A stretch of DNA of 61,183 bases, the filler included, from Candidatus Woesearchaeota archaeon (GTDB lineage: Archaea > Nanobdellota > Nanobdellia > Woesearchaeales > DATGWN01), in the NCBI GenBank assembly GCA_047603125.1. It is 8 parts of 8 records of this genome, joined end to end, with 100 filler letters (N's around TTAATTAATTAA, not from the genome) between each part and the next. Parts side by side here need not be neighbours in the genome. Positions count along the whole stretch, not along the records: positions 33,215 to 40,687 come from JBLKOU010000051.1; 7 more parts are not named here. The stretch is one strand, 5' to 3'. The notes beneath the pieces are model-generated. The model worked only from the letters and a program-made list of their open reading frames with translations. It did no database searches and was not told the DNA's origin. Within the stretch, counting starts at the first letter, position 1. Each line of letters starts with the position of its first letter. The position numbers and the translations under genes are program-made. This document shows, piece after piece, positions 718 to 40,787 of the stretch.

Positions 718-1249
718 TCCAGTATATTTACAAGCAAAAACAATTGCCCAAATTCAAGCACAATCAAAGGAAAATGCGCTCATACCAAACATTAAATTAG
801 CTGATTTTTTTCAAGATGATGCGGTGAAAAAACAATTTTTACAAGCCACGTTTTTTGAATTCACTGACCTCTTGCATGGTCAGTATGCATTTGCAAAAGT
901 AACACTGGATTGTCAAAACGCATTAGGGGAATTTTTAGAAAAAGTGCTTTCTGTTAAAGTTACATCCTTAGACTGTGCGGTGTACAAATTAAAACCAGGT
1001 TCGTATTCGTTATTAGTAGATGATGCAAAGCCGCAAACGGGTGTTGATATCATTTTTGATTTTACTGAAAGCTTTGACTCGCGTGCGCGCGCAGAACTTG
1101 TGTATCAAACACCAAAAGATCTCATTGACATACCTGCCCATAATGGCGTGACACTTGTGTGGAAAAAAGATGCGCGTTGGTTTTTCAAATACATGAATCA
1201 TTATGGCAAAGAAAGAATCATTGGTATTGCAAGCATTACAAATGTCTAA
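707..1249 (+). CDS. OGFOD1/Ofd1 C-terminal (non-catalytic)-like domain protein
   Basis: VNPVYL..IAQIQ, KPGSYSLL and NGVTLV..FFKYMNH resemble the OGFOD1 C-terminal domain; overlaps the upstream gene. Confidence 0.65.
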   Translation: MNVNPVYLQAKTIAQIQAQSKENALIPNIKLADFFQDDAVKKQFLQATFFEFTDLLHGQYAFAKVTLDCQNALGEFLEKVLSVKVTSLDCAVYKLKPGSYSLLVDDAKPQTGVDIIFDFTESFDSRARAELVYQTPKDLIDIPAHNGVTLVWKKDARWFFKYMNHYGKERIIGIASITNV

Positions 1250-34916: not shown

Positions 34917-34943
34917 TTTTTTTCTTTTTTCTTCCTTTTTTTC

Positions 34944-35095
34944 GGCTTCATCCAAAAATTGTTTTTCAAAAAGAGCACGCAGATTTTGCTCAAGAGTCCC
35001 ACTTTGAGAATAGTGCAAAAATTTAGCTGCATGAATCGCTAAATTTTCTGATCTGGCTGCAAGGTGCTCTTTTATCTTATTTTTTGGATGAAGCC
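34944..35095 (+). mobile_element. MITE type B copy 3 with 9-bp target-site duplication
   Basis: TIR GGCTTCATCCAAAAA/TTTTTGGATGAAGCC; CTTTTTTTC at 34935-34943 and 35096-35104. Confidence 0.8.
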
Positions 35096-35139
35096 CTTTT
35101 TTTCTAAAAGTTAATAAATACAAAAAATATACAATCATT

Positions 35140-38119: not shown

Positions 38120-38409
38120 ATGCCGTCGTCGCATACGCGCAGATGTCTCTCATCTTCGGTCGCGCCGTCGTCATTCATTAGCATTTATGCCGTCGTCGCA
38201 TAATCAATGGCAACCTTCAAAAAGGATTGAACATTTACTACCATTCGCAAACCGCTCATGGCGTGGTTTGTTTTCATACATTAAATTTATGCCGTCGTCG
38301 CATAATCAATGGCAACCTTCAAAAAGGATTGAACATTTACTACCATTCGCAAACTGCTCATGGCGTGGTTTGTTTTCATACATTAAATTTATGCCGTCGT
38401 CGCATAATC
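38120..38409 (+). repeat. Tandem copies of the tRNA-Ser 5' end; 102-bp tandem repeat
   Basis: ATGCCGTCGTCGCATA at 38120, 38187, 38289, 38391 and GCCGTCGTC at 38164; the two 102-bp units differ by 1 nt. Confidence 0.9.
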
Positions 38410-38520
38410 TGGTATTGCGCCGGTCTTGAAAATCGTGAAGTACCTTCACGTGTGCTTTATTTGGCACAATCAAGCAAACCGGTCCCTTAGGGATTCCCGG
38501 TTCAAATCCGGGCGGCGGCG
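38393..38520 (+). tRNA. trnS: tRNA-Ser(TGA) with 46-nt intron (38431-38476) at position 37/38
   Basis: Acceptor GCCGTCG/CGGCGGC, long variable arm, T-arm; bulge-helix-bulge with CTTG/CAAG helix and AAA/CAA bulges. Confidence 0.93.
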
Positions 38521-38877: not shown

Positions 38878-39642
38878 ATGAGTGTTGACGATTTGACAAG
38901 AAATAAGTTCATAAAATCTGTAGAAGAAAAAATTCGAACACAAGATGTTCAATTTAGTATTCTAAAATTAATCTATCTTATTGATTTAGGATTCAATAAA
39001 GGAAAAACTCATAATGCCTTATTTGCTTTTTTTGACACCTATTTTCCAACCATCCTTTTCGAATCTCAAAACATTGATAAATTAAAAAAAATTATGATTG
39101 AGACTAAAGGAGAATATGACTTCCTAATAAAAAAAACGTCATACTCTTTGGATTTAGGAATAAAAAAAAAGTATTATTATAATGAAATAAGTTCGCTTGT
39201 TCTATTAATGCTCGAAAATAAAAAAAATAAAAAAATATTAGCTGAAATAAATACAATGGAAAAAGAATTATTACATATTATTGCCCCTAACTTAAATATT
39301 CTTTTACCTAACGAAGTTTTAATTAAACTATTGATCCATACAACTGGTCTAAAAAGACTATCGCAACTTACGGGTTCGAAAATACAAGTGTTAGGTGCTG
39401 AAAAAGCACTACATAAACACAAAAAAGGTAAATCCACATCCCCAAAATACGGTTATATATATGAAGTTAACTTTATTAAAAAGACCAAATCTGGAAAATT
39501 AGCAAGATATTTTGCAAACAAATTGTCAATTGCTGCTAAAATCGACTACTTTTATAAAAACATTAATAAAGATTTTATAGATACTATTTATTCAAGCCCA
39601 ATGATGAGTGATTCGACATCGCCTGAGGGCAATTTATATTAA
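38878..39642 (+). CDS. nop5: Nop5 (Nop56/58) C/D RNP scaffold, short and divergent
   Basis: IAPNL, SKIQVLGAEKAL, SPKYGYIY, GKLAR..ANKLSIAAKIDYF. Confidence 0.88.
   Translation: MSVDDLTRNKFIKSVEEKIRTQDVQFSILKLIYLIDLGFNKGKTHNALFAFFDTYFPTILFESQNIDKLKKIMIETKGEYDFLIKKTSYSLDLGIKKKYYYNEISSLVLLMLENKKNKKILAEINTMEKELLHIIAPNLNILLPNEVLIKLLIHTTGLKRLSQLTGSKIQVLGAEKALHKHKKGKSTSPKYGYIYEVNFIKKTKSGKLARYFANKLSIAAKIDYFYKNINKDFIDTIYSSPMMSDSTSPEGNLY
39596..39630 (+). ncRNA. Minimal box C/D kink-turn RNA motif
   Basis: GCCC-A-ATGATGA(box C)-GTGATTCGACATCGC-CTGA(box D)-GGGC; terminal stem GCCC/GGGC; GC-rich patch in AT-rich DNA. Confidence 0.75.
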
Positions 39643-39643
39643 A

Positions 39644-40303
39644 ATGGAAAAAATATCTGAAGGAATTTATAGAAAAGATGGAAAGATATATACTATCAAT
39701 AACACAGACAAATATAAATATTATGATGAGAACGTATTAATTCATCTAAATAATCGTTATCGTCAATGGAACCCATACAAAAGCAAAGTTGGTGCTTCAA
39801 TAAAAAAAAAATTGAAAGAAATCCCTATTTCAAGAGAGAGTGTAATTTTATATCTTGGTTCATCCAGTGGGACAACAGTTAGCCATATAAGTGATATATT
39901 AACAAACGGAAAAATATTTGCAGTTGATTCTTCAAAAGAGATGATGAAAAAATTCATGAAGTTAGTTCATAACAGAAAAAATATCTTTCCCATATTAGAA
40001 AGTGCAAGAAATTATAAAAAATACAATATTCCCTCAGACACCTGCATTGACTTAATTGTCCAGGATGTTGCTTGTGTTGATCAAGTTAATATTTTAATTA
40101 ATAATTCTGACTATTATTTAAAATCAAACGGAAAGGTTTTAATCGCAATTAAAACACAAAGTATTGATTCCATAAAAAAACCAGGCATTGTTGTAGAAGA
40201 ACAAAAAGAAATATTAAAAGGCAAATTTAAAATATTACAAACATTAAATCTGGAACCATTCGAAAAAAACCACTGGCTATTATTCATGGAAAAAAAAGAA
40301 TGA
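39644..40303 (+). CDS. flpA: Fibrillarin rRNA/tRNA 2'-O-methyltransferase
   Basis: YRQWNPYKSK, ILYLGSSSGTTVSHISDI, NIFPILESAR, QDVA, LEPFEKNH. Confidence 0.95.
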   Translation: MEKISEGIYRKDGKIYTINNTDKYKYYDENVLIHLNNRYRQWNPYKSKVGASIKKKLKEIPISRESVILYLGSSSGTTVSHISDILTNGKIFAVDSSKEMMKKFMKLVHNRKNIFPILESARNYKKYNIPSDTCIDLIVQDVACVDQVNILINNSDYYLKSNGKVLIAIKTQSIDSIKKPGIVVEEQKEILKGKFKILQTLNLEPFEKNHWLLFMEKKE

Positions 40304-40396
40304 TGTAAGGGCAATTTCCCTCATTTTTTAGTCTAATCAAAAACTTTCCAAAAACAAAGAAGAACATTTATAAATAACCTCGCATTGAAACTATTT

Positions 40397-40684
40397 GTGA
40401 GTGATAAATACGTCGGCGTCGGTGGAGAACTTCATGATAGCAATGTAGCTGTTCTAGATGAATCAGGAAATATAGTTTTAGCAATAAATGAAGAACGGTT
40501 AACAAGGACAAAAAAAGAAGGAAGATTTCCATTTTGTGGAATTAAAGCTACAAAATATCATGACGCAAAAGTTGTGATTGGTGCAAATTCAATAGATGAA
40601 GCAGTTTCTCAAGTGATTTTAAACATTCAGAAGTTGGCTACTCCCCTACATGAATGTAGGGGCATCTACGCCAACTTAAATTAA
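40397..40684 (+). pseudogene. Carbamoyltransferase (CmcH/NodU family) N-terminal fragment
   Basis: HDSNVAVL...AINEERLTRTKK..FP; runs into a palindromic element near the contig end. Confidence 0.7.
40631..40677. repeat. IS200/IS605-end or REP-like palindrome
   Basis: AAGTTGGC..CCCCTACA-TGAA-TGTAGGGG..GCCAACTT. Confidence 0.55.
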
Positions 40685-40787
40685 CTTNNNNNNNNNNNNN
40701 NNNNNNNNNNNNNNNNNNNNNNNNNNNNNNNTTAATTAATTAANNNNNNNNNNNNNNNNNNNNNNNNNNNNNNNNNNNNNNNNNNNN

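Follow-up and report, generated by a model that had tools for sequence, protein, structure and literature searches.

The stretch of DNA analysed here (the window, 61,183 nucleotides (nt) of the Candidatus Woesearchaeota archaeon assembly GCA_047603125.1, joined from eight parts with filler between them) carries, on contig C32 of this genome (G000), the genes of a compact Nop5 and of a fibrillarin, nop5A and fibA, and at their junction a single box C/D kink-turn hairpin, which is the subject of this study. The element reads GCCC A ATGATGA GTGATTCGACATCGC CTGA GGGC, i.e., a C-stem of four base pairs (bp), all G+C (39596-99 with 39627-30), a three-base bulge AAU (39600-02), consensus boxes C (39601-07) and D (39623-26), which would form tandem G.A/A.G pairs along with a U.U and a single G-C pair, and a loop, or spacer, of 15 nt (39608-22). 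With its last 16 codons, the nop5A frame crosses the element and ends with TAA at 39640-42, and 13 nt separate the end of the stem from the fibrillarin start codon (39644). A perfect kink-turn with GCCC/GGGC stem, both boxes, a 15-nt spacer and 13 nt to the ATG is exactly what a first-pass annotation of the sequence had described, and its statement that C' and D' boxes are lacking likewise holds, there being a single loop only, with no C'/D' motif inside it or inside the 15-21-nt loops of the relatives described below. In line with the archaeal box C/D small RNA (sRNA) criterion, the element is an RUGAUGA/CUGA kink-turn closed by a terminal stem; the spacers of about 12 nt that belong to the same criterion are replaced by the 15-nt loop in the window and by loops of 17-21 nt in relatives. 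No Rfam family matches the element at gathering or E-value thresholds.

Table 1. Features of the nop5A-fibA locus, with positions counted along the window.
Feature	Position	Strand	Basis
nop5A, compact Nop5, 254 aa	38878..39642	+	Pfam PF01798; open frame back to 38794
Single box C/D kink-turn hairpin	39596..39630	+	Sequence; covariance model R1, 53.7 bits
Proposed guide, box-D-proximal loop part UCGACAUCGC	39613..39622	+	Pairing with own 23S
fibA, fibrillarin, 219 aa	39644..40303	+	PF01269, E 2.3e-63
AGGG/CCCT hairpin followed by T6, after the fibA stop	40308..40329	+	Sequence reading

The motif per se is not rare, because a strict two-strand scan of the whole 1.1-Mb genome gives two such motifs versus about 0.6 expected by chance (derived from 549 C boxes and 36 C..D pairs with displaced-register controls). 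What is rare is its location, flanked as it is by the genes for the two proteins binding this kind of motif. The other match in the genome, on contig C57, lies antisense in a DNA methyltransferase gene and is probably due to chance. Folding of the spacer on itself, which had been put forward as well, is unsupported, as the lone spacer folds no better than its shuffles (z of -1.04), and the same is true for the complete 35-mer (z of -0.46).

NopA, the product of nop5A, gives a Pfam match to PF01798 (Nop domain) alone (E 4.6e-26), i.e., to the part that binds the surface formed by L7Ae and the kink-turn, together with matches to Nop5 and Nop56 structures in the PDB. The N-terminal domain (NTD) family is not among its Pfam matches and, hence, the canonical fibrillarin-binding domain is absent. 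The AlphaFold2 model of the protein is all-helical from residue 3 (predicted local distance difference test score, pLDDT, of 85.6), and NopA aligns over its full length with the N-terminally truncated Nop5 3nvi_A, to which it is equal in length. FibA matches PF01269 in full length (profile positions 12-224 of 227) and is 34% identical to a second fibrillarin of the genome. For the NopA-FibA pair, a complex is predicted with a score of 0.87, which is reached by 116 of 157 solved complexes and by 2 of 215 mismatched pairs, versus 0.01 for the best of three controls; contacts agree to at least 87% between runs, with a partner pLDDT of at least 90, and the predicted FibA interface on NopA comprises residues 4-19 (a helix), 57-61 and 89-93. 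Likeness to solved Nop5-fibrillarin complexes may partly account for this result. A Shine-Dalgarno-like GGGTGA was noticed by eye 6 nt 5' of the nop5A start codon, and no Shine-Dalgarno stretch is present for fibA in the zone usual for this genome (-14 to -9). Occlusion of a Shine-Dalgarno sequence was considered as main mechanism of the element and rejected, since the GAGG formed by box D and stem lies at -19, outside that zone. The hairpin and T6 run behind fibA represent a possible transcript end.

Close relatives of these proteins are few. Protein searches gave only two for NopA (87 and 83%) and three for FibA (90, 88 and 83%), all on contigs of at most 3.6 kb, and the tail SSPMMSDSTSPEG is kept in all three NopA proteins. 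Contigs from four read runs contain relatives about 91% identical over both genes and free of insertions and deletions (127 differing letters in X9, 139 in X10), the differences being listed outside 39431-40144 only and thus having no bearing on the element. Protein-pattern scans for relatives of both genes gave none in genome, metagenome or viral contigs, and the viral contigs searched thus give no hint of a viral carrier. At the DNA level, a pattern of the kink-turn with a free loop of 10-20 nt retrieved 25 metagenome loci, eight of which encode Nop5 adjacent to the element and seven also fibrillarin, the other 17 being unrelated and mostly G+C-rich contexts. Overall, the element adjoins nop5 in 17 further loci, these being nine genomes of tiny archaea and the eight metagenome contigs. 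Locus L054 is a close relative (NopA 87%, FibA 90%), and L043, L048, L052, L056 and L065 are distant ones (NopA 36-44%, FibA 37-41%, G+C content 24-30%), in which the element is located between a Nop5 of 216-224 aa and a fibrillarin of 179-185 aa; in L061, it is found 9 nt upstream of nop5.

A covariance model (R1) constructed with these sequences outlines the distribution. Among 151 genomes of the window's order, only G000 matches strongly (53.7 bits) and six others reach 20.9-23.7 bits. Matches are found in 2 of 151 genomes of a class sample, in 4 of 121 from the order of genome G553, in 9 of 41 belonging to one genus with genomes of about 0.5-1.2 Mb, and in G602, the sole genome of its family, with always one element per genome. 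Not one of 62 native-type nop5 loci from the window's order and the phylum sample matches the model; the 63rd source, the G553 locus L075, does. A relaxed kink-turn scan of the native operons of relatives yielded noise only.

Conservation is that of an RNA. Neither box C nor box D changes in any of the 18 loci, the Nop5 proteins of which are as little as 27-44% identical to NopA. The TGA of box C is itself the nop5 stop codon (GCC CAA TGA or GCC CGA TGA) in L043, L048, L052, L056, G687, G793, G795, G768 and G794, the frame through the element reads P-M-M in the window, L054 and L065, and in G553 nop5 and fib form one frame of 429 aa running through the kink-turn (L108, G553:C1:66422-69467, 843-2132), which may reflect a genuine fusion or a single-base error in the assembly. 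As the reading frame differs between loci, an RNA element and not a peptide is what has been kept. The stem reaches 7 bp in most loci and varies by UUU/AAA, UUC/GAA and AAA/UUU, a change from G-C to U-A in G687 and one from C-G to U.G in G649, with four of eight stem pairs changed on both sides. Its covariation score is 0.274 versus 0.093 in shuffles, none of 500 of which reaches 0.274, and slid registers score 0.025-0.146, in an alignment that was fitted to the model and has ungapped stem columns. Between L054 and the window, 130 of 1426 positions differ (90.9% identity), none of them within the 35 nt of the element.

Three loop types can be distinguished, i.e., type I, GAAACCU[U/C]ACGAC[A/G]GCGG, in L048, L052, L065 and G602, type II, of 17-21 nt and ending in the invariant GCGAUGUG, in L043, L061 and nine genomes, and type III, GUGAUUCGACAUCGC, in the window and L054; the loop of L056 is a hybrid. 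In L048, L052 and L065, the type I loop is identical at 18 of 18 positions although the Nop5 proteins are only 58-62% identical and the flanks unalignable, which indicates that the loop sequence is under selection. In type II, exactly the 8 nt adjoining box D never vary, whereas the loop is variable elsewhere. For L7Ae binding alone, no constraint on the loop sequence would be needed. Conservation of the hairpin alone with a freely varying spacer, for which a check had been suggested, is accordingly not seen; the spacer differs by lineage and stays aimed at the same rRNA strand.

This strand belongs to the peptidyl-transferase centre (PTC) of 23S rRNA. In G000, the target reads ACAUCGAUGUCGGCUCUUCC, and loop positions 2-9 from box D form eight Watson-Crick pairs with its CGAUGUCG (2501-2508), followed by a G-U pair (position 10), a mismatch, two pairs, a mismatch and another G-U. 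The pairing claimed earlier on the E. coli sequence is retained in these eight pairs, the remainder being slightly weaker than counted there. The fifth loop nt from box D (D+5) faces the U of CGAU, which we take to be U2504 in E. coli numbering. For the window, D+5 is then on the position previously proposed; in the largest group of relatives it is on 2500. The 23S genes of ten further genomes were read (G553, G687, G649, G793, G794, G795, G582, G421, G407 and G602; L109-L112 and L124-L130), and in every element-bearing genome with readable rRNA the 8-9 box-D-proximal nt of the loop pair with the genome's own PTC strand within 2496-2509. The own strand is CG-AU-GUCG (CAUCG-AU-GUCGG) in G000 and CG-CC-GUCG in G602, where the loop pairs in the same register with GG opposite CC. 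In G553, G687, G649, G793, G794 and G795, it is UACAUCGC, with C2503, and pairs with GCGAUGUG, the invariant 8 nt of type II covering 2496-2503 with a G opposite the lineage-specific C2503. Replacement of A2503 by C (-CU-) is seen in 9 of 9 genomes read from one family of very small archaea, six with and three without the element. The 23S rRNA of G602 bears both C2503 and C2504, variants of the near-universal PTC strand. The L048-type loop (..GA..) would fit the -CU- variant.

A guide-like site was defined as a helix of at least 8 bp that begins 1-2 nt from box D and contains no more than one G-U. In the own 16S and 23S rRNA of G000, G553, G687 and G649, the PTC strand alone qualifies; in G602 it is one of two such sites. 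Shuffled loops have a guide-like site anywhere in 29-50% of trials, whereas a site within 12 nt of the PTC place is obtained with 2, 6, 1, 0 and 13 per 1000 (G000, G553, G687, G649 and G602, respectively). Co-localisation of the three loop types on rRNA is thus not at chance level, a significance confined to the test restricted to the a-priori PTC place. What counts as independent evidence is confined to type II (p of about 0.001-0.006), the pair of compensating positions in G602 (a chance of about 1 in 16) and the window loop, which fits its present host and not the -CU- or -CC- lineages.

The reading we favour, and hold to be somewhat probable on these sequence comparisons, is that of a natural single-kink-turn guide, or at least of an rRNA-antisense ribonucleoprotein (RNP), aimed at the PTC strand and possibly feeding back on fibrillarin synthesis. 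Several observations weigh against it. The helix has only 8-9 bp, and among 150 random genomic 15-mers compared with the 16S, 23S and 38 tRNAs of G000 (8.4 kb), 43% have a run of at least 8 pairs covering D+5, as have 37% of 150 shuffled spacers, the share for random or shuffled 15-mers against all rRNA and tRNA being 27-43% overall. In whole-rRNA shuffle tests, no loop type reaches significance (p of 0.05-0.97 with G000 rRNA and 0.23-0.57 with own rRNA). The register common to types I and III carries no independent weight, as these types are homologous. Between groups, the register moves by 4 nt, with D+5 on 2504 in types I and III versus 2500 in type II, so that a single conserved methylation site is unsupported. 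Other sites fit as well, with 8 bp between the G602 loop and helix 34 of its own 16S rRNA and 8-9 bp between the type II loop and 16S positions 1407-1415. Moreover, the PTC strand ACAUCGAUGU is palindromic, due to which type II and III loops resemble mutual reverse complements and sense mimicry is not fully separable from antisense pairing. The build is non-canonical, with a closed loop of 15-21 nt on one kink-turn and without C'/D', NopA is without the canonical fibrillarin-binding domain, natural C/D complexes are described as always bipartite in Hardin & Batey (2006, PMC1635284), and the 44-nt identical run in L054 is unremarkable there.

A positive control puts the short helix into perspective. 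On contig C10 (G000:C10:900-948, minus strand; L042, L132), G000 encodes a box C/D sRNA of the canonical two-motif kind, in which all boxes are perfect and both spacers have 12 nt, and whose best rRNA matches are also just 8-9 bp long, indicating that duplex length does not tell real guides from chance in this genome. A target on contig C49 was considered and rejected, as the 14/15 copy of the spacer at G000:C49:22549-22563 is same-sense and lies in an open reading frame, which also encodes DSTSP; the chance expectation for such a match is about 0.1.

Taken alone, the 8-mer match to rRNA is at chance level, just as the first-pass annotation had allowed. This, the number of such motifs to be expected in any genome and the foreign character of the cassette in G000 (see below) are what a chance motif or a dead relic with no present function in this organism would be consistent with. 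Nevertheless, we regard such an origin as very improbable, since the element is conserved in 18 loci despite the low Nop5 identities, its stem covaries and the loop of the window fits the canonical PTC of G000, not the C2503 variant of the compact lineages.

The shifted register also bears on a second alternative, namely an RNP that pairs with the PTC strand of nascent 23S rRNA as a helper in folding and assembly, with methylation being absent or incidental. In favour of such a helper, the register to box D varies (D+5 on 2504 or 2500) on a bound strand that is itself conserved; the operon directly follows the 23S gene in G553 and G794, by 95 nt and on the same strand in G553, and Daume et al. 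(2017, PMC5539422) refer in their introduction to C/D RNPs acting as chaperones. However, 8 bp are little for a chaperone clamp, and every element-bearing genome checked (5 of 5) has retained fibrillarin, which in the window has a full-length Pfam match; this argues for catalysis. A role confined to folding is, therefore, judged improbable.

Retention of fibrillarin is part of a more general pattern. Each of five element-bearing genomes examined has one good fibrillarin match, whereas none of five element-less genomes of the same family (91-100% complete) has any. L7Ae is present in 5 of 5 element-bearing genomes. The gene immediately downstream of the element is fib in nine of ten genome loci, the exception being G687, where fib is carried by a different contig. 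These data support a module of three parts, namely nop5, a single kink-turn RNA and fibrillarin, which occur either together or not at all. The cassette of Nop5, fibrillarin and a single guide proposed in the first-pass annotation gains comparative support from this unit behaviour and from loops antisense to the own PTC, that is, by an argument other than the 8-mer match. A strict C-D'-C' pattern for canonical sRNAs gave no match in 4 of 4 compact genomes but found the G000 control, with the reservation that the pattern may overlook degenerate sRNAs. In these compact genomes, Nop5 and fibrillarin may therefore have no RNA partner other than the junction hairpin, in which case a purely regulatory role would leave the two proteins jobless.

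Such a purely regulatory role, i.e., a cis-acting mRNA kink-turn bound by L7Ae (and Nop5) that mediates feedback on fibrillarin/nop5 translation or on mRNA stability and has no target in trans, has precedents. In Sulfolobus acidocaldarius, L7Ae binds a kink-turn within the first 125 nt of the nop5-fibrillarin mRNA and also autoregulates its own mRNA (Daume et al., 2017, PMC5539422), and L7Ae sites have been noted in the aNOP56 transcript of Thermococcus kodakarensis (PMC4247193). In line with this, the element is 9-25 nt before a start codon in eight loci (fib in seven, nop5 in L061), the stretch up to the start is AT-rich and devoid of Shine-Dalgarno-like sequence, fibA has none at -14 to -9 and so may depend on coupling to nop5A, and the l7ae leader of G000 by eye resembles a kink-turn hairpin. 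On the other hand, L7Ae needs the kink-turn core only, yet the loop is strongly constrained with 8-10 conserved box-D-proximal nt, and three different loops antisense to the own PTC strand with compensating changes would be left unexplained. The location of the element after nop5 in G687, with fib on another contig, argues against pure gating of fib translation, and in G553 both genes are in one frame. In addition, native nop5-fib operons of the window's order do without the element (0 of 62 loci), and where the hairpin is the only recognisable C/D RNA by the strict pattern, with the reservation about degenerate sRNAs given above, a regulator of guideless proteins would serve nothing. A function in cis alone is accordingly considered unlikely, albeit a good deal less so than a role restricted to rRNA folding, and regulation of this kind is a serious competitor of the guide reading or may be a second function beside it. 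Whatever probability remains falls to something else.

In G000, the cassette is not the only Nop5-fibrillarin system. A second operon, with overlapping stop and start, is located on contig C50, and its native Nop5 (NopB), as far as visual inspection of the translated sequence shows, appears to possess an NTD. In 29 related genomes, fibrillarin shares 39-59% identity with the C50 copy but only 31-43% with the window copy, which, in a tree computed with FastTree only and showing long branches, sits on a long stem with three near relatives and two metagenome proteins, far from the C50 copy. Fibrillarin of the P0128 type, the nearest sister in this tree, did not turn up in 400 sampled genomes of the phylum. 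The cassette has a G+C content of 27.8% versus a genome mean of 36.4% (standard deviation 2.5) and 39.2% in the native operon; among 3403 windows of 1.5 kb, just 0.6% match the low value of the cassette. Still, C32 belongs to the genome, with ends overlapping contigs C70 and C43 by 77 and 76 nt, respectively, a dispersed repeat shared with more than 30 contigs and a tetranucleotide correlation with the genome of 0.98. The module in G000 is thus an extra copy beside the canonical C/D system, probably acquired horizontally, and the C10 sRNA presumably partners the native C50 pair. L7Ae is encoded elsewhere in G000. Its gene leader (L041, G000:C39:30800-32000, about 722-780, minus strand) reads CUU AAU GA C GGCA CUA UGCC U GA GAG, by eye similar to a kink-turn hairpin as described for L7Ae autoregulation. 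Another strong low-GC outlier, with 23-27% GC in 1.5-kb windows, is G000:C35:1200-9600, which may be another foreign island. Possible, though rather doubtful, is the more far-reaching reading of a self-contained RNA-guided methyltransferase in three parts (a Nop5 without NTD, fibrillarin and a single-kink-turn guide encoded between their genes) that moves horizontally and would be dedicated to the PTC strand, with its guide retuned to the A2503/U2504 variant of the host, and added beside a canonical C/D system.

For the favoured single-kink-turn guide, the following course can be envisaged. The element would be co-transcribed with nop5A and fibA, and L7Ae would bind the C/D kink-turn, followed by docking of the NTD-less Nop5A, carrying FibA, on the L7Ae-RNA surface. 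When the mRNA is trimmed, the protein-bound hairpin, about 40 nt long, may be spared, for which archaeal C/D sRNAs that overlap genes are a known precedent. The 8-9 loop nt adjoining box D would then pair with the PTC strand (2501-2509 here, 2496-2503 in most relatives), and fibrillarin would 2'-O-methylate the ribose opposite D+5, i.e., U2504 here and U2500 in the shifted group, or, alternatively, a few neighbouring riboses, as with engineered one-kink complexes. Bound 13 nt upstream of the fibrillarin start, the same proteins may also feed back on its synthesis.

The same 23S positions, 2498-2504, are served in bacteria by protein-only enzymes with no guide RNA, where RlmM makes Cm2498 (PMC3488215), RlmN and Cfr act at A2503 and RluC at 2504; except for RlmM, their chemistry is different. 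With archaeal box C/D sRNPs, the element shares perfect AUGAUGA/CUGA boxes, a terminal stem, an encoded Nop-domain protein, fibrillarin and L7Ae, a putative antisense stretch starting 1-2 nt from box D and a proposed target near the PTC, a region described as an rRNA modification hot-spot (PMC7994747). In contrast to these sRNPs, it has one kink-turn, no C'/D' and a loop of 15-21 nt instead of two 12-nt spacers, pairs over 8-9 bp, goes along with a Nop5 without NTD, and is encoded within the operon of its own proteins as one such RNA per genome. Closer in architecture are engineered hemi- or half-mer C/D RNPs (PMC1635284; PDB 3NMU, 3ID5), with a single C/D motif and one guide, which assemble with L7Ae, Nop5 and fibrillarin and can methylate, the active single-kink complexes of Hardin & Batey (2006) modifying positions 3-7 without site specificity. 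These, however, are laboratory constructs, usually with a free or two-piece guide, whereas the present element is natural, has a closed loop and goes with a naturally shortened Nop5. L7Ae-binding mRNA kink-turns (PMC5539422; Huang et al., 2019, PMC6298567) resemble it in being placed in mRNAs of C/D RNP proteins near a start codon, but the nop5 mRNA site described in PMC5539422 is in the 5' part, whereas the element is at the nop5/fib junction and combines full C/D consensus boxes with a constrained loop antisense to rRNA. In a limited full-text literature search, neither a natural C/D guide with a single kink-turn nor a guide gene within a nop5-fibrillarin operon was found described.

Other parts of the C32 segment show further features. 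A dispersed repeat of about 160 nt at 34936-35104 resembles a miniature mobile element; more than 30 other contigs bear copies of it, at 79-95% identity. A hairpin-rich stretch of 76 nt at 40612-40687, identical to the end of C43, interrupts a carbamoyltransferase frame (40385-40684) that is whole in the relative L054. At 38171-38409, a unit of 102 nt is repeated 2.3 times with 97% match, each copy including a promoter-like stretch and the first 17 nt of the next gene, an intron-bearing tRNA (38393-38520, 47-nt intron). Rfam reports this gene as tRNA and ARAGORN as Ala(tgc) with intron; by eye, anticodon and long variable arm read as Ser(UGA), and similar repeat units are also found upstream of tRNA-Ser genes on contigs C19 and C26.

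If true, a conserved natural one-kink guide would be an exception to the two-motif rule for box C/D RNPs and offer a minimal system for structural and synthetic work. The horizontally moving methyltransferase, if real, would be the simplest natural RNA-guided RNA-modifying machine and would mark the ribosomal pocket that accommodates many PTC inhibitors. Several ribosome inhibitors bind in the pocket lined by these nucleotides. In archaea, resistance to inhibitors has been connected with natural variation of the PTC (bioRxiv 10.1101/2024.11.12.623245). As the target strand 2496-2509 varies naturally (C2503, or C2503 together with C2504), co-evolution of guide and target is testable on sequence, the guide model predicting CGCUGUCG at 2501-2508 (C2503, U2504) in the organisms behind L048, L052 and L065. 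Finally, the module appears to be optional and to serve one rRNA site, which bears on the retention of Nop5 and fibrillarin in certain very small archaea whose close relatives are devoid of both.

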